The notes under the pieces were generated by a model. The model searched no databases, was not told the DNA's origin, and saw only the letters and a program-made list of their open reading frames with translations. From Candidatus Taylorbacteria bacterium RIFCSPHIGHO2_02_FULL_44_12 (GTDB lineage Bacteria > Patescibacteriota > Minisyncoccia > Phycocordibacterales > PALSA-1337), in the NCBI GenBank assembly GCA_001822575.1, contig MHRM01000001.1, positions 24,755 through 64,019 on the forward strand: a DNA stretch of 39,265 nucleotides. The letters run 5' to 3'. The stretch's first letter is position 1; each line of letters opens with the position of its first letter. Of the stretch, positions 2,783 to 27,571 are shown piece by piece. Both the position numbers and the translations under genes were made by a program.

Positions 2783-3091
2783 AATTCAAACTGTTTTGGA
2801 TGCGCACCAAATGGAGTTAATTCCAAAATGCTCTCGCACAAGGCTCCACAATCAAGGCACACATCCGACTCACTATCAAAAAAGTATTACATAACCCCAA
2901 AAATGTCAATAGTCGGGTGTGGACAAAGGAACAACAAAAAATATTATGAACATGTTGAATCATAACTATACTATTTACATTATATATAATTGTTGTAGTC
3001 TCATTATTAGATTTAACTATCGAAACCACTTCTGTGGGATTGATTCATTTACAAACAGCTCACTGACAATCAGTAATACTAAAAAAAGACT

Positions 3092-5302
3092 ATGATAGAA
3101 CAAGATTTTCGTCCGCTGGTCGTATTGTACGGCTATCGGAGCAAGAAAAACACGCTCAATTTTGTGGGTCGAAAAGGGCTTATAATACTGAGCGGAAAAA
3201 GCACTACCATTCAGAATATTTTACGCCTGTGCAACGGATTCAATAATGTTGGGGATATAACTCACAAATTACGGACCGTCAGTCCGGAAGAAGTGACCAA
3301 ATTTCTGTTACTTTTTGAACAGCAAGGGATTGTCTGCGATAGTCGGAATCTTCATCTAAGGTTCCACGAAGATTCAGCCAATCCGACAAAATTCTCGCGC
3401 GATCTCGGTGTTGATGGGGTTTCAGATATATTGCGGTCTGATAGGTTACGAAAACGCGATGGTAGGGTAATTCAGATACCCAACCCTATCTCGAGTAGTG
3501 TTCTTGATGTAATTCAAAATCGGAAGTCTACTCGGGCTTTTCAACCGGGTCAGATTTCGTTGAACAAATTGTCTGGAATCTTGGAGGCTACATACAGCAT
3601 CGGGAAAAACAAACACTGGAGCGTGGCCTCCGGTGGTGGAATGTACCCGCTTGATCTGTATCTAATCGTCCCTAATGACGATCAACAAGTGCCCAGAGGC
3701 ATACATCGCTGGAATCCTGAGAAGAGAAGTTTGATCATGGTGTCGGGCAAAAATCCGAGCGTATGGTTGTCAAAGACATTCAATGCCAAAACGCTTTTGG
3801 AAAATGTGGCATGCGTCCTGTGCATAGTGGCAAATTTCAAGCGTTCAACTATGAAGTACGCGAATCGTGGGTATCGTCTTGTTTTACTTGAAGCTGGGCA
3901 TGCGACACAAAACACTTACTTATTTTGTGCTGAGCAAAATATTGGAATTGTTGAATGTTGTGGATTTGCTGATGAAGAACTAGCAAAAGAGCTCGGGCTG
4001 ATTTTCCCAGAAGAAGCAGTTTTAACAACACTTATTATAGGAAAAATCAATCGTAAAAAATATGCCTCAATAAGTGACCAAGAAATGTCAGAAACAGCAG
4101 AACGACTTCGTCACATGCTTGTTGGGCACAACAAACCAATAGAAGATGTTTCGTTTTTGGATCTTGAAGTGATGGGATACACAATGCCAATGTGGGCAGC
4201 TGTGGCTACATATAGACCTATTCATGGGTATGCCACAAAAATCATGCTTAGAAATAAAGTTGCATTTGCGACTGGATCAAATTCAAACGAAACGCTTATA
4301 AAAGTTCTAGCGGAAGGATTTGAGCGATGCGCGCTTGAACAAAACCGTAGCGACCAAAAAGAAAGCGCTCTCAATCTAGGCGAACCATTCCTCGATCCTC
4401 GCGTCCTAGTTCCTTACTCGAACGCTCAATTCAAAAACTTAAGAGGTGTCACACAGTTTGATCCCCGGAGAAAAATAGATTGGGTTATTGGTTCACGCAG
4501 AGCGACTGGCGAACGAGTTTGGGTTCCTATGGAGCTTGTCTACTACGCTACGGAGCAAATGAAGTGCGAATTGAAACTATGCTATCAAGCGAGTTCAAGT
4601 GGTGTCGCGGCGCATCTCGACAAAGAGATTGCGATTGAGACGGCTCTCTACGAACTTATCGAGCGTGATGCCTTCACTGTCACATGGTATTCCAAGCGTC
4701 AAGTGAATTCGATAAATCACGAGTACTTGCCGTTAGACTTGAGAGATAGAATTTCAGAGTGGAAGCGACTGGGTTACAATGTTTCCATGCTGGATTTGAC
4801 ACTCGATGGTCCTCCAGTAATACTGGCTATCATATGGTCTCGAAAAAAGAGACCTGCAATCTGTTCTGGTGCAGCCTGCAAACCAAACTTTGTTGATGCA
4901 ACTCTAAAAGCGTTCAACGAGGCTGAGTTTATGGCTATGACATGGCATGATTACAGGCGAAAAACGAGAATGAGCATTCTAGATATAAAATGTCCAGAAG
5001 ATCACGGCGCTTTTTATCTGGATCCGAAAAATCTCGTGTATGTTGACTGGCTACTTGAAGCAGAAGAAAGTGATGTAATCAGGAAAAACTTCAAGGGTGA
5101 TCTACAGTATCTTGATCCTGTTGTGGTGGATATTACACCCAAAGATCATGCCTGTGGGCTGTCGGTTATGCGGGTGCTGTCGGAAAAGCTCATGCCTATC
5201 AACTTCGGCCATGGTAATGAACACCGTGGACATTCTAGAATGAACATGTTATCGTTCAAATGGAGTGAGAAATACCCTTCGACTCCCCACTTCTTCGCTT
5301 GA
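3092..5302 (+). CDS. tri-domain RiPP maturase: PqqD-like recognition domain + SagB-type (nitroreductase-fold) dehydrogenase + YcaO cyclodehydratase
   Basis: SagB-type motifs: NRKSTRAFQPG, ASGGGMYPLDLYL, NRGYRLVLLEAGHATQNTYLF, VECCGFADEE. YcaO/SagD-type motifs: ATGSNSNETLIKVLAEGFERCA, SSSGVAAHLDKEIAIETALYELIERDAF, and a Pro-containing C-terminus KYPSTPHFFA. N-terminal aa about 25-85 (TTIQNILRLCNGFNNVGDITHKL...EEVTKFLLLFEQQGIV) follow the PqqD/RRE winged-helix pattern. Confidence 0.85.
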   Translation: MIEQDFRPLVVLYGYRSKKNTLNFVGRKGLIILSGKSTTIQNILRLCNGFNNVGDITHKLRTVSPEEVTKFLLLFEQQGIVCDSRNLHLRFHEDSANPTKFSRDLGVDGVSDILRSDRLRKRDGRVIQIPNPISSSVLDVIQNRKSTRAFQPGQISLNKLSGILEATYSIGKNKHWSVASGGGMYPLDLYLIVPNDDQQVPRGIHRWNPEKRSLIMVSGKNPSVWLSKTFNAKTLLENVACVLCIVANFKRSTMKYANRGYRLVLLEAGHATQNTYLFCAEQNIGIVECCGFADEELAKELGLIFPEEAVLTTLIIGKINRKKYASISDQEMSETAERLRHMLVGHNKPIEDVSFLDLEVMGYTMPMWAAVATYRPIHGYATKIMLRNKVAFATGSNSNETLIKVLAEGFERCALEQNRSDQKESALNLGEPFLDPRVLVPYSNAQFKNLRGVTQFDPRRKIDWVIGSRRATGERVWVPMELVYYATEQMKCELKLCYQASSSGVAAHLDKEIAIETALYELIERDAFTVTWYSKRQVNSINHEYLPLDLRDRISEWKRLGYNVSMLDLTLDGPPVILAIIWSRKKRPAICSGAACKPNFVDATLKAFNEAEFMAMTWHDYRRKTRMSILDIKCPEDHGAFYLDPKNLVYVDWLLEAEESDVIRKNFKGDLQYLDPVVVDITPKDHACGLSVMRVLSEKLMPINFGHGNEHRGHSRMNMLSFKWSEKYPSTPHFFA

Positions 5303-5336
5303 AGGAGTAACAAATTGAAGGGAAGTTGGGCGTATT

Positions 5337-5468
5337 ATGAAAACAAAAAAACCACCGAACCCCCCCAAAGGAGTCAAGGTGTCAGTTCGTTCTTACAAAG
5401 ACATCCCAGGAACCCGTTGCACCCGCAGTGGTGGCGCGTGTCCGGGAGGTGGTACCTGCGGAAAATAG
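5337..5468 (+). CDS. candidate RiPP precursor peptide (43 aa), not in the ORF track
   Basis: My translation: MKTKKPPNPPKGVKVSVRSYKDIPGTRCTRSGGACPGGGTCGK, stop TAG 5466-5468. It starts 34 nt after the YcaO-fusion stop. The C-terminal 18 aa contain 3 Cys, 3 Thr, 1 Ser and 6 Gly. An in-frame GTG at 5379 is preceded by AAGGAG (5368-5373), giving a possible 29-aa alternative. Confidence 0.5.
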   Translation: MKTKKPPNPPKGVKVSVRSYKDIPGTRCTRSGGACPGGGTCGK

Positions 5469-5488
5469 CCACCCCGTTACAACCAGGA

Positions 5489-5518
5489 ATTCCATGAGAC
5501 ATCCGTGTTTCATGGAAT
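5489..5518 (+). terminator. possible attenuating hairpin after the precursor ORF
   Basis: attccatga (5489-5497) pairs with tcatggaat (5510-5518) around a 12-nt loop, followed by the T-rich ctttgtttatc. Weak as a terminator. Confidence 0.3.
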
Positions 5519-5539
5519 CTTTGTTTATCTATAATATTG

Positions 5540-5545
5540 TATAAT
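5540..5545 (+). promoter_or_regulatory. -10-like TATAAT 6 nt upstream of ATG 5552 (leaderless-type arrangement)
   Basis: tataat followed by accttt then ATG. No Shine-Dalgarno motif lies between. Confidence 0.4.
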
Positions 5546-5551
5546 ACCTTT

Positions 5552-6217
5552 ATGTCTATAAATACCCATGTCCTTTTGGCCTCAAAAGATATAAGACCAT
5601 ATGTAAAACAACTGAAATCAATTTCTGAATCTGCTGTTTTGTCTGTTAAAAAATTGTTACCAATCAATGATGTGGATGTAGTGTTCTACTATAACCCAGG
5701 AGCAACATTTAATGAGTCTGAGGTTGGTGGTATCGGAGGATTTACACCAAATGCTAGTGTTATATTTATTTCACTAAATCCTCGTCATCCAAATCTTGAG
5801 AGTTCATTAAAAAATGAGTTACTATTTATGTTGGCTCATGAATTTCATCATACCATTCGTTGGCAAAAACAAGTCGAGGGCGACACCTTATTGGAGGCTC
5901 TGGTATTTGAAGGCTTAGCAGATCATTTTGCTCAAGAAATAACTGGCAAAAAAACTCCATCGATATATTCCAACGCATTGACCCCTGAACAAAAGAAAAT
6001 TTTTCTTAAAAAGGCTTCAGGGGAATGGGAAAAGCCAACATACGATAACAATCTATGGTTCTTTGGTTCACAGCCAGATGTTGTTCCGCGCTGGACAGGG
6101 TATACATTGGGATATGATCTCGTTTCCGCATATTTACATACAAACCCTGGGACAAGTGCTTCAAAACTTGCATCTGCTGATGCATCTTTGTTTGCCAACA
6201 AATCAATTTATCAGTAG
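5552..6217 (+). CDS. DUF2268/YjaZ-like putative zinc metallopeptidase (candidate leader peptidase)
   Basis: HExxH motif in MLAHEFHHTIRW, then EGLADHFAQE and RWTGYTLGYDLVSAYL, matching the general pattern of the DUF2268 predicted Zn-protease family. ATG 5552 is preferred over TTG 5537. Confidence 0.6.
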   Translation: MSINTHVLLASKDIRPYVKQLKSISESAVLSVKKLLPINDVDVVFYYNPGATFNESEVGGIGGFTPNASVIFISLNPRHPNLESSLKNELLFMLAHEFHHTIRWQKQVEGDTLLEALVFEGLADHFAQEITGKKTPSIYSNALTPEQKKIFLKKASGEWEKPTYDNNLWFFGSQPDVVPRWTGYTLGYDLVSAYLHTNPGTSASKLASADASLFANKSIYQ

Positions 6218-6391: not shown

Positions 6392-6826
6392 ATGCGCTTT
6401 CAGGTGCCTCAATTCATAGAAGTGGAAGACAGGATATTTGGCCAGCTGACTTTGAAGCAATTCATATATTTGGTCGGAGGCGGCGGTTTGTCTTTTCTTA
6501 TTTATGCCTTGACAGACAGCCTGGCCATATCCGTCGTCCCAATGATCATCATCATGGCCATATCTGCCTCCTTGGCTTTTTACAAGGTCAATAACAAACC
6601 CTTTATCGCCACCATGGAGTCCGCATTCAAATATTATCTAGGCAGTAAACTATATATATGGAAAAAAGAAGATGTCCCCGCAGAAAAGAGTCTCCAAAAT
6701 ATTTCGGCCATATCAAAAAACTACGCCTCTATCATGGTCCCAAAGATCTCTGACAGCAAGCTCAAAGACCTATCATGGAGTCTGGACATAAAAGAAAGCG
6801 TCTATTCAAACAAAAATCAAAAGTGA
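6392..6826 (+). CDS. PrgI-family-like small membrane protein (T4SS-associated)
   Basis: N-terminus MRFQVPQFIEVEDRIFGQLTLKQFIYLVGGGGLSFLIY and two TM helices are typical of PrgI-type proteins. It lies directly upstream of VirB4. Confidence 0.65.
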   Translation: MRFQVPQFIEVEDRIFGQLTLKQFIYLVGGGGLSFLIYALTDSLAISVVPMIIIMAISASLAFYKVNNKPFIATMESAFKYYLGSKLYIWKKEDVPAEKSLQNISAISKNYASIMVPKISDSKLKDLSWSLDIKESVYSNKNQK

Positions 6827-7510: not shown

Positions 7511-9322
7511 ATGTCTATATTTTCAAAATTATTGGGGAAAAAATCTGAAGCACCAATAGTTTCCGTCTTACCCGAAGAAATATACCAAGCTGGGGTACTG
7601 GAACTCAAGGATGTCATCGCTCCATCTGCTCTCAAGGTTAGCCCCAAGGAGCTCAATCTCGGAGAAAAAATCGCTCGGACCTTATTTGTAATTTCTTATC
7701 CCAGATTTTTGGACGAAAGCTGGTTTGCTCCGATCATAAACCTAGACAAAGTATTCAATATATCCATATTTATTCACCCCGTTGACACCGCCAAGATACT
7801 GCGACATTTCCAGAAAAAAGTAGCCGAGGTTCAGGGACAGATTTCCAGAAGAGAAGACAAAGGCCTGGTGCGCGACCCGGCTCTGGATACAGCATACCAA
7901 GATCTGGAAGCCTTGCGCGATCAGCTGATGCAGGCCCAGGAACATCTCTTTGATGTCGGAGTATATATCACCCTCTTTGCCGAGACAGACAATGAATTAG
8001 ACAAACTAGAATCCGAGGTCAAATCCATTTTGGAATCAAAACTGGTATATGTAAAACCTGCCCTATTCCAGCAGGAACAAGGCTTCAAAAGCGTCATTCC
8101 CATTGCCGATGATCAGTTAGCTGTCCATTCCAAGCTCAATTCATCGCCACTCTCTAGTCTGTTCCCATTTGTTTCTTTTGATCTGACTTCGGACAAGGGC
8201 ATACTCTATGGGATCAATAGACACAATTCTTCATTGGTACTCTTTGACCGTTTCTCCTTGGAAAATTACAATTCCGTGACATTTGCGGTGGCTGGCGCCG
8301 GAAAATCCTACTTTACCAAGCTGGAAATTCTTCGTACCTTGATGTTTGATACAGAAGTGATCGTCATAGATCCTGAACGAGAATACGAATATATGGCCGA
8401 AGCCACGGGTGGAAAATATTTCAATATTTCCCTCAATTCCGAGCACCATATCAATCCCTTTGATCTACCGATACCGCGCGAAGATGAATCCGCTACTGAT
8501 GTTTTGCGCTCAAATATCATCAACTTGGTAGGATTATTCCGAATCATGTTGGGCGGCCTGACCCAGGAAGAAGACGCTATCATTGACCGGGCCATCACCG
8601 AGACATACGCTCTCAAAGACATTACAGCTGAGGCAGACTTCCGCAATGTAGAACCACCGCTTTTGTCAGACTTTGAATTGGTCCTGGCTGGAATGGAAGG
8701 AGCTGATTCTCTGGTCCAACGGATGTCAAAATACACCAAGGGTACATGGGCAGGCTTCATCAACCGCCCCTCAAATGTTGATATCAATAAAAAATTCGTG
8801 GTTTTTTCTCTTAGGGACATGGAAGACGAGCTCAAACCTGTGGCCATGTATATTGTTACTCACTATATCTGGAATGCTATCCGCAAAAACCTCAAGAAAC
8901 GCCTATTGGTCATAGATGAGGCATGGTGGATGATGAAATCCGAAGATACGGCTTCATTTCTATTCAGTTTGGCCAAACGTGGACGCAAATATTATCTGGG
9001 TCTATCCACTATCACTCAAGATGTGGATGACTTCTTGCGCTCGCCATACGGTTTGCCAATCGTTACCAACTCTTCTATTCAGATACTTCTGAAACAGTCA
9101 CCAGCTGTCATGGACAGCGTCCAAAAAACATTCAATCTGACCGATGAAGAGAAATACCTATTACTAGAATCAGATGTGGGAGAGGGGATGTTCTTCGTGG
9201 GCCTCAAGCATGTAGCTATAAAAATAGTGGCTTCCTACACCGAAGACCAAATCATCACCACCAATCCAGCTCAATTAGTCCAAATCCAGCAGGCAAAGAA
9301 AGATCTGGAGCAAGCCAGATAA
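7511..9322 (+). CDS. virB4: VirB4-family T4SS ATPase, C-terminal ATPase part
   Basis: Walker A is AVAGAGKSYFTK and Walker B is KRLLVIDEAWWMM. GRKYYLGLSTITQDVDDF is typical of the VirB4/TraC-type (DUF87 / AAA-like) domain. Confidence 0.85.
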   Translation: MSIFSKLLGKKSEAPIVSVLPEEIYQAGVLELKDVIAPSALKVSPKELNLGEKIARTLFVISYPRFLDESWFAPIINLDKVFNISIFIHPVDTAKILRHFQKKVAEVQGQISRREDKGLVRDPALDTAYQDLEALRDQLMQAQEHLFDVGVYITLFAETDNELDKLESEVKSILESKLVYVKPALFQQEQGFKSVIPIADDQLAVHSKLNSSPLSSLFPFVSFDLTSDKGILYGINRHNSSLVLFDRFSLENYNSVTFAVAGAGKSYFTKLEILRTLMFDTEVIVIDPEREYEYMAEATGGKYFNISLNSEHHINPFDLPIPREDESATDVLRSNIINLVGLFRIMLGGLTQEEDAIIDRAITETYALKDITAEADFRNVEPPLLSDFELVLAGMEGADSLVQRMSKYTKGTWAGFINRPSNVDINKKFVVFSLRDMEDELKPVAMYIVTHYIWNAIRKNLKKRLLVIDEAWWMMKSEDTASFLFSLAKRGRKYYLGLSTITQDVDDFLRSPYGLPIVTNSSIQILLKQSPAVMDSVQKTFNLTDEEKYLLLESDVGEGMFFVGLKHVAIKIVASYTEDQIITTNPAQLVQIQQAKKDLEQAR

Positions 9323-11192: not shown

Positions 11193-12383
11193 ATGAAATC
11201 ACTCATTTTATTGAGAGGAAACAAAAAAATCTTTATGGCTATGATTTTTTGCTTCATAGTGTTCTTGAATACCTTGAATGTTTCTAATCAACATTTCGTA
11301 TTCGCCCAGAACGCGAACAATACAACATACACTCTTTTGGAACCTCTTCCTTGTATACCGACAGAGACTAGCCCTTGCCCAGAGGGCCCGGGAGAATTAA
11401 AAACCGAAGTAAATCTCAATGAATATCTCATATATGCCATCAATTTGCTGATAGCCCTTTCGGCCGTGGCGGCAGTCTTCATGATCACTTGGGGGGGGTT
11501 CCAATACATGACAACGGATTCCTGGCAGAACAAAAAAGAAGGTTTGACCAAATTCAAAAACGCCATCTTCGGCCTTCTTCTAGTCCTTTGTTCATACATC
11601 ATACTGCGCACCGTCAATCCGAGGCTTGTAGAGATCCCAGCCACACTTGTGCCACCTCTAACGAATGTCAATCTCAAAGATTCAATAAGCCCTGATGATT
11701 TCTTTGATCAGATATCAGCAGAGGTACAAAGATTGAGTAACAATTTGGATGTTTCTATCATGGAAGAAAAGTTGAGACAAGCAAAAGGGGATGTAAAGTT
11801 AGAAAAACAAAATATTGATGATTTAAAAAAACAGTTGGATATATTATCAAAAGAGGGAATAAATGAAACTGATCCACGGGTACAAATAATAAAAACTTCT
11901 ATTGAAGTTGCAAATAATAATATAAAAGAAAAAGAGGCTAATGTTTTGGTAGAAGGGATTAAATTTACTAACAATGCCTCTATTGAGTTAGCCGCTCAAG
12001 GACTTGTTGGTAAAAAGGATTTTGAGGGGATCAACACTACTATAAATTACTACAAAAAAAGAATAGAGAATTCCGAAAATATAAAGATCTTCGAACTGGA
12101 AAAGCTCGGTAAGTACGAAAAATATTCCGTAGTAAATGATCAAGCTATTTATTCACAAACCATACTAGATTTGATGAGGAGCGATGCTATGGTCCAAAAC
12201 GCAGATTTTGGTTTCTTTTTCCCAAGCGGGACATATACATATAGAAGCCAGAAACCTCAAGCTTTGGCAGAGCTCAATACTGTGCCGAAACAAATAGAGT
12301 CCATAAAAGACCCGATATTGAAGCAAGAACTTCAGGATAGATTGAAAAACAGCATTGCATTGATTGAAGAAAAATTCAAATAG
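11193..12383 (+). CDS. T4SS-pilin-like (TrbC/VirB2-like) domain protein with long coiled-coil C-terminal extension
   Basis: Signal/TM segment, then two helices LLIALSAVAAVFMITWGGFQYMTT ... AIFGLLLVLCSYIILRTVNP typical of T4SS pilin domains. The C-terminal 230 aa are K/E-rich coiled coil. Confidence 0.5.
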   Translation: MKSLILLRGNKKIFMAMIFCFIVFLNTLNVSNQHFVFAQNANNTTYTLLEPLPCIPTETSPCPEGPGELKTEVNLNEYLIYAINLLIALSAVAAVFMITWGGFQYMTTDSWQNKKEGLTKFKNAIFGLLLVLCSYIILRTVNPRLVEIPATLVPPLTNVNLKDSISPDDFFDQISAEVQRLSNNLDVSIMEEKLRQAKGDVKLEKQNIDDLKKQLDILSKEGINETDPRVQIIKTSIEVANNNIKEKEANVLVEGIKFTNNASIELAAQGLVGKKDFEGINTTINYYKKRIENSENIKIFELEKLGKYEKYSVVNDQAIYSQTILDLMRSDAMVQNADFGFFFPSGTYTYRSQKPQALAELNTVPKQIESIKDPILKQELQDRLKNSIALIEEKFK

Positions 12384-15297: not shown

Positions 15298-16650
15298 ATG
15301 AGTGATTATACAAAAATGTGGCAGACGGCCCTGGTGAAGATAGAATCTGACATATCACAAGCCAACTTTTCAACATGGTTCAAAGAAACCAGCATCGTTC
15401 GTGAAGAGGAGGGAGTCGTGTACTTGGGAGTGCCAAACTCTTTTACCCAGGAATGGCTTTACAAAAAATTCCACAACTCCATTTTGCGCGTTCTGCGGGC
15501 CTTGAATGAGGGAGTCCGTTCCCTTGAATATGTCATTATCACCAAAGACGGCAGTATCAAGGGGCTGGGACACGCCAAAAGAAAGGAAGTGGACCTACCG
15601 ACTATGTCTATGCCTCTCCATGATTTCTACATCAACAAAGAAGACAACCTCAATCCTCGCTACACTTTTGAAAATTTCGTCATCGGCCCATTCAACGAGC
15701 TTGCTCATGCCGCCTCACAAACCGTCATTCAGAAACCAGGCCAAACATACAATCCCTTGTTCGTATACGGTGGAACCGGTCGGGGCAAAACACATCTGAT
15801 CCAGGCTATTGGGAATAAAATAAAAAAAGATTTCGCCGACAAAAAAGTCTTTTATCTGACCTCGGAACGCTTCGGTTCCGAATATCTGGTCTCACTCCAA
15901 GAAAACAAAGCCCAACTATTCAAGGAAAAATATCGCCGTTTTGATGTCGTTATCATGGACGATGTTCAGTTTTTCTCAAAAAAAGAGAAATTCCAAGAAG
16001 AATTGTTTCATTTCTTCAATACATTCAAGGATACGGGCCGTCAGCTGGTATTTTCTTCAGACATGCACCCCAATATCATTCCAGAGCTAGAAGACCGTCT
16101 ACGAAGCCGTTTCAACACTGGTATGGTCGTTGATATACCAGAACCAGACCATGAATCGCGGATAGCCATCGTTAGGACAAAATGCTCCACCCACAACATC
16201 ACCTTGCCGAAAGATATTATAGAATTCTTGGCTGATGCCATAAAAGACAATATCCGCGAAATAGAAGGTGTGGTAAACATAGTTGCTTGTCAGACACAAC
16301 TCAAAAAAAGAGAGTTGAATATAAATGAAATCAAACAGATTCTCAAAAATTGCACCAAACCAAAAAAGGTCGTTTCAATCAAAGATGTGGTCAAAACCAT
16401 ATCGGAATATTATGGAGTTGATGAAGACAGTATATACAACAAAACCAGACGCAAGGAGGTTGTCAGACCTAGACAAGTGATCATGTATATCCTTCGTGAG
16501 GACTTCAATATATCCTTTCCAGCTATTGGCGAAAAAATAGGAGGGAGAGACCACACCACGGTTATTCATTCATACGAAAAAATCCGAGGAGAGGTCAAAA
16601 ATGATCTTTTGTTGTCGCAGGAGATCAGTCAACTTCGTTCTATGTTATAA
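15298..16650 (+). CDS. dnaA: chromosomal replication initiator DnaA
   Basis: Walker A is GGTGRGKTHL. Also VIMDDVQFF, and the C-terminal DNA-binding helix IGGRDHTTVIHSYEKI. Confidence 0.95.
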   Translation: MSDYTKMWQTALVKIESDISQANFSTWFKETSIVREEEGVVYLGVPNSFTQEWLYKKFHNSILRVLRALNEGVRSLEYVIITKDGSIKGLGHAKRKEVDLPTMSMPLHDFYINKEDNLNPRYTFENFVIGPFNELAHAASQTVIQKPGQTYNPLFVYGGTGRGKTHLIQAIGNKIKKDFADKKVFYLTSERFGSEYLVSLQENKAQLFKEKYRRFDVVIMDDVQFFSKKEKFQEELFHFFNTFKDTGRQLVFSSDMHPNIIPELEDRLRSRFNTGMVVDIPEPDHESRIAIVRTKCSTHNITLPKDIIEFLADAIKDNIREIEGVVNIVACQTQLKKRELNINEIKQILKNCTKPKKVVSIKDVVKTISEYYGVDEDSIYNKTRRKEVVRPRQVIMYILREDFNISFPAIGEKIGGRDHTTVIHSYEKIRGEVKNDLLLSQEISQLRSML

Positions 16651-26714: not shown

Positions 26715-26749
26715 CCGCTTGAGCGCGAGATACTCAAGCGGTCTTTTTT
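26715..26749. terminator. bidirectional intrinsic terminator
   Basis: ccgcttgag (26715-26723) pairs with ctcaagcgg (26733-26741), followed by tctttttta. The right arm overlaps the hepT stop codon. Confidence 0.55.
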
Positions 26750-27177
26750 ATGTACGAATCAATTTGAATCATGTATGTCTTAAAATCAGAAAAGTGATTT
26801 TTGAGATTCCTTAGAAACATTTCCTTATCTAGTTTTTCATATCTGTGAACAAGCATGTTTCGAGCGCCAACGATCGGGGCTATTCTTTTGGCGAATTCAT
26901 TTTCAAGCACCTTGCATTCTCCGAGAGCCACAAAAGTACTTTGCAGGTCGTCTGGAGCTCCAAGCTTGCCCTCTCGCAGTATGTGAATATTGATGTCAAT
27001 CATAAGGTCAACCGCAAGCTGAAAATATCTTTCAATGGCCGGTAATTTCAAATCATCCTTTATGAGTTTGTTTATTTCTGAACCAGAAACATAATACTCA
27101 AGTTTTTTGACATTCTCGGCAAGCAATTGTATTTTTTTTGTTATGAAATCTGCGTCAAGCATTTTTGTATTCTTCAA
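26734..27177 (-). CDS. hepT: HEPN-domain toxin (HepT/DUF86-like) of a HEPN-MNT module
   Basis: R-x4-H HEPN motif in GARNMLVHRYEKLD. 147 aa. Overlaps the upstream MNT gene by 23 nt. Confidence 0.8.
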   Translation of the reverse strand: MKNTKMLDADFITKKIQLLAENVKKLEYYVSGSEINKLIKDDLKLPAIERYFQLAVDLMIDINIHILREGKLGAPDDLQSTFVALGECKVLENEFAKRIAPIVGARNMLVHRYEKLDKEMFLRNLKNHFSDFKTYMIQIDSYIKKTA

Positions 27178-27571
27178 TTATATTGGAAACATAATGTGAT
27201 CTCAAATCAAAGAGAGGACGAGCTTCGTCGTATAAGCGCAGCGCGGAAATAAAAAAAGTATCAAAAAGATGTCTTTCTTTCTCATACAAAACAATAGCAT
27301 GTTCAACGATCTTCTTTCCAAGAAGCGGTGACACATTTTTTAGATTGACAAGCTGTATGGCGTTATGTTTGAAGATTTCAATTAGTTCATTATTTATTTT
27401 GATCTCTTCCTCAAGATTAATCTTCTTTCCAGAAGAAAGATAAGCAATATCATAATCACTTTCCTTGTGAGTTTTGCCGGTAACTTGTGAACCAAAAAGA
27501 ACAACAAGGGCCAAATCATACTTTAAAGCCAGTTTTTTTATTGGACCTTTTTTAGAAATCACATTTATCAT
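27155..27571 (-). CDS. mntA: minimal nucleotidyltransferase (MntA-like antitoxin)
   Basis: The GS-x9-DxD style motif is LFGSQVTGKTHKESDYDIAYL. Confidence 0.8.
   Translation of the reverse strand: MINVISKKGPIKKLALKYDLALVVLFGSQVTGKTHKESDYDIAYLSSGKKINLEEEIKINNELIEIFKHNAIQLVNLKNVSPLLGKKIVEHAIVLYEKERHLFDTFFISALRLYDEARPLFDLRSHYVSNIIEEYKNA

Follow-up and report, generated by a model that had tools for sequence, protein, structure and literature searches.

The three co-directional genes at positions 3092–6217 of a 39,265-nucleotide stretch of Candidatus Taylorbacteria bacterium RIFCSPHIGHO2_02_FULL_44_12 (contig MHRM01000001.1, positions 24,755–64,019 of the forward strand; referred to as the window) very probably form a minimal, self-contained cassette for a ribosomally made peptide with post-translational modifications (RiPP) of the linear azol(in)e-containing peptide (LAP) or thiazole/oxazole-modified microcin (TOMM) type, as judged from homology, motifs, gene neighbourhood and predicted structure. 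The cassette lies on the forward strand and consists of a gene for a fused enzyme of 736 residues (3092–5302), which combines a RiPP recognition element (RRE)-fold domain, a SagB-type flavin mononucleotide (FMN) dehydrogenase and a YcaO cyclodehydratase, a gene for a 43-residue precursor peptide (5337–5468) starting 34 nt past the enzyme stop, and a gene for a DUF2268 protein (5537–6217; 226 residues as first called). An original prediction, made from the nucleotide sequence alone, had described an azol(in)e-type locus in which a fused RRE-SagB-YcaO enzyme is accompanied by an uncalled precursor open reading frame (ORF) and an HExxH-containing DUF2268 protein. Domains, fold and precursor conservation support this description; the coordinates given for the three ORFs were all confirmed in the window, and every signature string quoted there was found in the translations.

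Domains of the fused enzyme

Both catalytic parts of the 736-residue protein are significantly matched by the Pfam profiles that the original prediction had named. The nitroreductase profile PF00881 covers residues 141–317 (E=2e-16; 3512–4042, forward strand), and the YcaO profile PF02624 covers residues 395–696 (E=2e-41) of a domain which extends over residues 395–736 (4274–5299, forward strand). The NCBIfam SagB model TIGR03605 scores 99 bits against a curated cutoff of 78, and among the NCBIfam YcaO models the azoline-forming SagD type fits best, rather than that for McrA thioamidation or TIGR00702. The YcaO domain contains the motifs AEGFER (E408, E411 and R412), SSGVAAH (S502, G504, A507 and H508) and ELIERDA (E521, E524, R525 and D526), whose listed residues are invariant in 38 homologs; the underlying ExxER, SxGxAxH and ExxERD patterns we take to be the nucleotide-binding motifs of the YcaO family. 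The C-terminus of the enzyme is conserved as P-x-x-P-H-F-F-A, with H733 and F735 invariant, and resembles the Pro-rich C-terminus of TOMM YcaOs. In the SagB domain, the pair K255-Y256 and, in the RxSxR motif, R144 are likewise invariant in the 38 homologs; K255-Y256 align exactly by sequence with Lys201-Tyr202 of McbC, which serve as catalytic base in the oxidation of azolines (PMC6395948). The YcaO ATP-binding motifs and the catalytic Lys-Tyr pair of SagB are intact.

An AlphaFold model of the full enzyme, built on the 38-sequence alignment, reached a predicted local distance difference test score (pLDDT) of 89.3 and a predicted template modelling score of 0.86. A Foldseek comparison of the whole model with the PDB gave LynD and TruD as best matches (E down to 2e-23), followed by BmdC, McbC (target template modelling score, TM, 0.74), ThcOx, McbD and archaeal and E. 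coli YcaOs. Residues ca. 1–95 (3092–3376, forward strand), modelled alone with a pLDDT of 88, adopt an RRE-like winged-helix fold of four strands followed by three helices. The top PDB fold matches of this segment are RREs, namely those of TruD, PbtF, LynD and TigE (TM 0.56–0.65, root mean square deviation 2.4–3.7 Å, probability 1.0); the isolated, peptide-bound PbtF RRE (8t19) superimposes with a TM of 0.65/0.74 and a deviation of 2.4 Å, and weaker matches comprise ThcOx, TbiB1 and McbB. By sequence, the PqqD profile PF05402 was detected with a non-significant E=0.086 in just two of 17 family members, and a profile search of the PDB with the N-terminal domain returned weak winged-helix hits only. 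The RRE guessed in the original prediction is accordingly borne out by the predicted fold and not by sequence profiles. It is the sole recognisable leader-binding element in cassette and window. At E≤0.1, E1, ThiF, TIGR03603 and TIGR03882 gave no match in the enzyme, and none was found in the other ORFs of the window; a search for a TfuA gene in cassette and window gave no match either. The RRE-fold domain on the N-terminus of the dehydrogenase may substitute for the E1/ThiF partner.

Precursor peptide and DUF2268 protein

The precursor has the sequence MKTKKPPNPPKGVKVSVRSYKDIPGTRCTRSGGACPGGGTCGK and can be divided into a leader, whose strand motif VKVSVRSY occupies residues 13–20, and a core, RSGGACPGGGTCGK, which spans residues 30–43 and includes Cys35, Thr40 and Cys41. 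Conservation of this small ORF next to enzyme homologs, on which the original prediction had made the precursor assignment depend, was found in 11 related loci (six from genomes and several from metagenomes), where an ORF of 41–47 codons directly follows an enzyme that is 48–81% identical and where all peptides end in the near-invariant core RSGGxC[SP]GGG[TS]CG. The substitution pattern is that of a coding sequence: pairwise differences within the five closest sequences amount to 59, 44 and 132 at codon positions 1, 2 and 3, pN/pS ranges from 0.09 to 0.46, core codons for Gly, Cys and Arg differ synonymously across the 11 loci with the residues fixed, and the alternative overlapping frames are interrupted by stops in homologs. 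The 43-codon ORF is a real gene under purifying selection. The peptide matches no family in Pfam or NCBIfam, and no homolog of it was present in a collection of 5.8 billion proteins, which shows that it is unannotated rather than unique; gene callers have therefore overlooked it systematically, in line with the original remark that it was missing from the ORF track.

From lineage to lineage the core is conserved unusually strongly, compared with a more variable leader, which suggests a conserved target. In two of the related loci (L002 and L003; labels of the form L001–L005 or L017 denote the related loci compared with the window) a partial tandem duplication inside the cassette has produced two precursors with the same leader and different cores, RSDTCTGGHTCGN[ST]GV and RSGGxCSGGGTCGR, which have C-x5-C and [TS]-C-G in common. 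The order of elements (L003:4380-5400, L002:2200-3200) is enzyme, precursor 1 with the core RSDTCTGGHTCGN[ST]GV, a truncated DUF2268-like ORF of ca. 130 residues devoid of HExxH, a 3′ remnant of the enzyme gene, precursor 2 with the core RSGGxCSGGGTCGR, and a full DUF2268 gene. This arrangement looks like a snapshot of precursor cores diversifying through duplication.

Between the precursor and peptidase genes, a terminator scan identified a hairpin with a 13-bp stem, a 4-nt loop and a T-rich tail (5489–5528, forward strand). A strong hairpin with a T-run past the precursor stop is present in 11/11 loci and the stem sequences differ among them, which suggests an attenuator that would set the ratio of the enzyme-plus-precursor transcript to that of the protease.

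The third protein matches DUF2268 (PF10026, E=8e-30) with 104.2 bits against a gathering score of 23.6 and carries its HEFHH motif at 5837–5851. Its true start is probably ATG 5552 (MSINTHVLL...) and not TTG 5537, because the starts of the homologs are conserved there. The protein resembles other members of this family, annotated as 'predicted Zn-dependent protease' of the B. subtilis YjaZ type, in the conserved HExxH and downstream Glu. In about 45 loci, a tblastn search placed DUF2268 homologs, as little as ca. 25% identical and encoded on either strand, next to the fused enzyme, and HExxH followed ca. 20 residues on by EG[LI][AG] is kept in 43/43 homologs spanning the motif. A sequence-based search found no solved relative, and the literature yielded incidental mentions only, none of them alongside YcaO and none assigning a function to a DUF2268 member. 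Judged from gene neighbourhood alone, this zinc-metalloprotease-like protein is the predicted leader peptidase of the pathway.

Mobility and relatives of the cassette

Similarity to L001–L005 at the DNA level (75–80%) is limited to positions ca. 2976 to 6199 of the window, i.e. to ca. 3.2 kb with the three genes, the 5′ edge varying between 2976 and 3019 by locus. None of ten flanking proteins tested, PrgI and VirB4 included, had a tblastn match in 90 related loci, and distant relatives of the cassette adjoin mraZ/PBP/Mur genes or RF/FtsEX genes. The comparison of synteny proposed originally hence gave a conserved cassette with flanks that are not shared: the three-gene unit is a mobile cassette of ca. 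3.2 kb that moves as a whole.

The conserved segment includes ca. 115 nt upstream of the enzyme gene (2976–3091, forward strand) with −35/−10-like boxes and a leader of ca. 90 nt. In the upstream alignment, TTGACA is followed by a spacer of ca. 17 nt, by TTGTAGTCT and by an invariant block; in the window itself the −35 box is degenerate and the −10-like box reads TTGTAGTCTCAT (2993–3004). The invariant block, GCTCACTGACAAT at 3058–3070, lies ca. 20 nt 5′ of the enzyme start and is exact in L001–L005. It is also exact in L017 (TCACTGACAAT), although the enzyme there is only 54% identical, and distant loci have looser T[TG]ACAA[TC]-like words at the same distance from the enzyme. The block could be an operator or part of a structured 5′ leader; an Rfam scan of the window returned only a tRNA-Lys and assigned the conserved leader to no known RNA family.

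The enzyme belongs to a large family. Its homologs form 71 clusters, of which all named ones are from Patescibacteria, and a metagenome scan yielded 80 loci; full-length fused enzymes were found at identities as low as about 23%. When 1.84 billion cluster representatives were searched exhaustively, 327 fused-enzyme clusters (50% identity) were returned at E≤1e-30; of the best 150 among these 327, the majority align as single-stretch matches of ca. 700–740 residues. A fused enzyme that is 36% identical occurs in the cultured cyanobacterium Oxynema sp. CENA135, which offers a route to test the family. The Oxynema precursor lies directly 5′ of the enzyme (L091:5597-5842, JAEOXH010000003.1), is microcin B17-like (MSLELEFVFTPYASGGSGGGSGGGGGSQCGGG...GGCQGGNHSSK) and reads at length MSLELEFVFTPYASGGSGGGSGGGGGSQCGGGTGGGGGGQSGGGGAASGQSGGGNSAGGCQGGNHSSK; the 97-residue gene called at 5688–5981 probably overlies this precursor in the wrong frame, and no DUF2268 gene was found near the enzyme. 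Distant loci of the candidate phyla radiation (CPR) have other Gly/Ser/Cys-rich peptides beside the enzyme, e.g. ...SANGCHSNSGHSGS, ...NSCAVGGSCSKCGGGHCGSCGGGKC... and ...GQGCNGHSGGGGNGGGQGCGRGR. A leader motif h-x-h-x-x-Y is common to most of them (VKVSVRSY, VRVKISQY, IRVTQTPY, LEFVFTPY and LEFKSVVY) and would fit strand pairing with the predicted RRE. RiPP pathways normally work in this way, with one enzyme family serving variable cores by means of a shared leader element.

Two members of the family deserve separate mention. In L010:157-5162 two divergent fused SagB-YcaO genes (738 and 665 residues) stand head to head and have one small ORF each in the shared intergenic region, of 42 residues (...AISASGCTDD) and 29 residues (...LDCQCSDPN), which makes this locus a two-enzyme, two-precursor variant. 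In the homolog P0041 (1194 residues, 57% identical) the fused enzyme is joined to DEAD/SNF2-type helicase domains (PF00270, PF00176, PF04851), probably by a gene-call or assembly fusion.

The family has a published counterpart in the 110 LAP clusters reported from 93 additional CPR genomes, 51/93 of them Parcubacteria (Sharrar et al. 2020, PMC7298704). Clusters of this kind were therefore already known in 2020, and the original argument from the rarity of natural-product loci in such organisms is weakened; in view of these clusters and of the 327 described above, that rarity was overstated. Both the published clusters and the present one comprise, in Patescibacteria, a YcaO, a nitroreductase-type dehydrogenase, a peptidase and an adjacent short Cys/Ser-rich precursor. 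In the published example the YcaO and nitroreductase genes are separate and the precursor has 84 residues, whereas here both activities reside with the RRE on one polypeptide and a 43-residue precursor carries a conserved core of 10–14 residues; the earlier study (PMC7298704) gives no family name for the peptidase, which here is DUF2268.

Microcin B17 (McbBCD/McbA; PDB 6GOS; PMC6395948) provides a second comparison. Related features are the Gly-rich core with Cys and Ser/Thr beside Gly, the [ST]-Cys and Cys-Ser sites giving 4,2-bis-heterocycles, the SagB/McbC-type dehydrogenase with its Lys-Tyr pair, the McbD-like YcaO fold and the removal of the leader by a metalloprotease, here predicted, instead of a C39 transporter domain. 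The differences are substantial. The McbB E1/zinc scaffold is missing here and an RRE is placed on the dehydrogenase; the B4C2D2 octamer of the microcin B17 synthetase is replaced by one chain with all activities; the export and immunity genes McbEFG have no counterpart; the protease is DUF2268 and not TldD/E; and the core comprises 10–14 residues instead of 43 residues with about nine azoles. Sequence identity to the microcin B17 synthetase is only ca. 14–20%. The locus thus lacks the characteristic genes of the microcin B17 family, and the likeness does not go beyond core composition and the folds of McbC and McbD.

The cyanobactin enzymes LynD/TruD/PatD and ThcOx supply the best fold matches of the RRE domain as well as of the whole protein (E=2e-23). 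The N-terminal fusion of an RRE-type domain to an azoline oxidase has a precedent in ThcOx, which lacks a YcaO domain, and LynD and TruD are fusions of E1-like and YcaO domains (C-D) without an oxidase, in contrast to the B-D fusion found here; the macrocyclase and the PatA/PatG proteases of cyanobactin systems are absent. A TOMM survey (PMC4603692) and a review (PMC7136475) list C-D fusions only and no B-D fusion. No description of a dehydrogenase-YcaO fusion without an E1/ThiF partner was found in the literature, where an earlier mention is possible and the main YcaO review was not covered, and no prior description was found there of the partnership with DUF2268, of the conserved core of 10–14 residues or of the hairpin past the precursor.

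Proposed pathway, alternatives and genomic setting

We propose the following scenario for the action of the cassette. Enzyme and precursor would be co-transcribed up to the hairpin, with read-through or a separate start yielding the protease. The β-strand of the precursor leader (VKVSVRSY) might then dock on the N-terminal RRE-fold domain, whereupon the YcaO domain would, at the expense of ATP, turn Cys35 and Cys41 into thiazolines by cyclodehydration and probably also convert Thr40 to a methyloxazoline. The FMN-dependent SagB domain is envisaged to oxidise the rings to azoles with Lys255-Tyr256 as base, so that the expected product would contain a thiazole and a 4,2-linked methyloxazole-thiazole, like a miniature microcin B17 site. 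Finally, the DUF2268 zinc protease would cut off the leader, probably near the conserved R-S-G-G. The modified residues, the binding of the leader to the RRE, the role and cut site of the protease and the independence from an E1/ThiF partner are inferred from homology, motifs and gene neighbourhood.

Several points weigh against this assignment. Characterised azoline-forming YcaOs normally require an E1-like or Ocin-ThiF-like partner (PMC4603692, PMC7136475), and none is encoded in the cassette or anywhere in the 39-kb window. Exporter and immunity genes are equally absent from both; the original observation that no transporter or immunity gene is in view holds across the whole window, which also yielded no further precursor genes. 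The RRE assignment derives from predicted structure with a marginal Foldseek E of ca. 1e-3, and RREs fused to azoline dehydrogenases are known and suspected to be vestigial (PMC7470986). Of the SagB and SagD models that the original prediction had proposed as a check, the former scores above its cutoff as described, but the SagD model TIGR03604 reaches 153.2 bits (E=8.9e-45) and stays under its curated cutoff of 219.25 bits. Moreover, the core in the window has Pro after the first Cys where most relatives have Ser, and the degree of core conservation is unusual for an antibiotic-type RiPP.

Among the alternatives, a different role of the DUF2268 protein fares best, but we consider it rather unlikely. 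The protein might serve self-protection by degrading the product, act in tailoring or C-terminal cleavage, or simply be a linked housekeeping protease. Such roles would agree with the lack of a characterised member or a solved relative by sequence, with the Oxynema locus devoid of DUF2268, with the position of the gene past a terminator-like hairpin and with the extra truncated copy without HExxH in L002 and L003. On the other hand, about 45 loci have the protein together with the enzyme irrespective of strand; it retains its metal-binding motif in 43/43 homologs, moves with the cassette and is the sole protease in the unit, and CPR LAP clusters have been described as consisting of YcaO, nitroreductase and peptidase (PMC7298704).

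Distinctly less probable is a different chemistry of the YcaO domain, such as thioamidation, amidine formation, ATP-dependent proteolysis or azoline formation without oxidation, in which case the product would be no azole peptide. The domain does resemble archaeal thioamide-forming YcaOs (TIGR03266, E=8e-16; PDB 6pe3, 6cib) and a YcaO with peptidase activity (7u58), and both the SagD score under the cutoff and the missing E1/ThiF partner are compatible with this idea. Yet the adjacent TfuA gene of thioamide-forming YcaO-TfuA systems is lacking here, azoline-forming enzymes give the best matches in both profile and fold (SagD, 9e-45; LynD/TruD, 2e-23), a fused SagB with an invariant Lys-Tyr pair would be purposeless unless azolines are made, and the cores keep Cys and [TS]-Cys.

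That the window holds no more than the inactive remains of an element gained by horizontal transfer might be suspected from the flanks differing among genomes, from the degenerate −35 box and from the Pro replacing the usual Ser in the core; we regard this as very improbable in view of three intact, full-length ORFs, the conservation of all catalytic residues, a pN/pS well under 1 between the window and its relatives and the recurrence of the CP core variant in L012 and L020. Least probable of all is an enzyme that modifies another substrate, e.g. a protein of the cell, as E. coli YcaO or the McrA system does, with the 43-codon ORF as a bystander or regulatory leader peptide: some homologs bear the database name 'ribosomal protein S12 methylthiotransferase accessory factor' and the peptide matches no known family, but a short Cys/Gly-rich ORF with a common leader motif and varying cores stands beside enzymes of 23–81% identity in two phyla, selection acts on the peptide sequence and not merely on the DNA, and the RRE-fold domain of the enzyme is typical of leader-peptide recognition.

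Returning to the azole-peptide cassette, one may speculate further and combine its features into a broader picture, which is possible but on balance doubtful. RRE-SagB-YcaO proteins would represent a distinct and widespread class of azole synthetases in which an RRE borne by the dehydrogenase replaces the E1/ThiF partner, and DUF2268 would be a family of RiPP leader peptidases that had so far escaped notice. A conserved target would be marked by the mini-core (C-x5-C with [TS]-C), which a mobile 3.2-kb cassette carries in near-invariant form in different Parcubacteria lineages, and genome-reduced episymbionts might use the product as a miniature microcin-B17-like poison of gyrase or translation, or in interactions with the host.

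If the single chain is active, the cassette would rank among the smallest complete azole-peptide systems, with one enzyme, one peptide and one protease gene, and would work without the E1/ThiF-like partner deemed standard for azoline-forming YcaOs, which bears on leader recognition and peptide engineering. The locus also offers a first testable function for the uncharacterised Pfam family DUF2268, documents a precursor family wholly missed by gene callers, shows the mobility of the cassette among Parcubacteria and provides a concrete conserved small molecule for testing interactions of CPR bacteria with hosts or competitors. It leaves unchanged that LAP clusters in CPR genomes were already known; the locus is well supported and real, not a categorical surprise, and useful to RiPP enzymology and CPR biology.

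Concerning the genomic surroundings, the original prediction had placed the cassette between two blocks of type IV secretion system (T4SS) genes. This is correct downstream, where genes for a PrgI-family protein (6392–6826), a VirB4/TraG-like ATPase (7511–9322) and a T4SS-pilin-domain protein (11193–12383) follow; upstream it could not be confirmed, the ORFs at 35–826 and 804–1436 having no significant Pfam match. Proximity to the replication origin is also correct, as yidC, dnaA (15298–16650) and dnaN lie downstream and begin about 7.5–9 kb away from the cassette. The guess of a reduced-genome bacterium was right, too: the DnaA of the window is 73–79% identical to those of Candidatus Taylorbacteria, Paceibacterota and Parcubacteria metagenome-assembled genomes, and DnaA and the relatives of the enzyme point to Patescibacteria. 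A functional tie of the cassette to the T4SS genes or the origin was considered and rejected on the grounds of the 0/10 flanking proteins with tblastn matches in the 90 related loci and of the unrelated neighbours of distant relatives; the T4SS and origin setting is incidental and without meaning. The remaining genes of the window are of the housekeeping type (RuvABC, PBP1, PolA, Fpg, Mur ligase, TsaE), together with a HepT/MNT toxin-antitoxin pair.

Directly upstream of the cassette lies a duplicated two-gene module to which no function is assigned. It is visible as a direct repeat of 269 bp with 91% identity (1192–1460 and 2125–2393), which corresponds to the C-termini of two paralogous ORFs (804–1436 and 1956–2369; 64% identical over 131 residues), each then followed by a small minus-strand ORF with a lipoprotein-like N-terminus (1511–1819, MKKLFQLALFVPVVMFVFGC...; 2453–2782, MKKMFLPALLALAFGMGC...). 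The HepT/MNT pair, a type VII toxin-antitoxin system among the housekeeping genes, is located on the minus strand at 26734–27571, where a HepT-like RNase gene (PF01934, E=7e-22) overlaps that of a Pol-beta-type nucleotidyltransferase (PF18765, E=4e-17).

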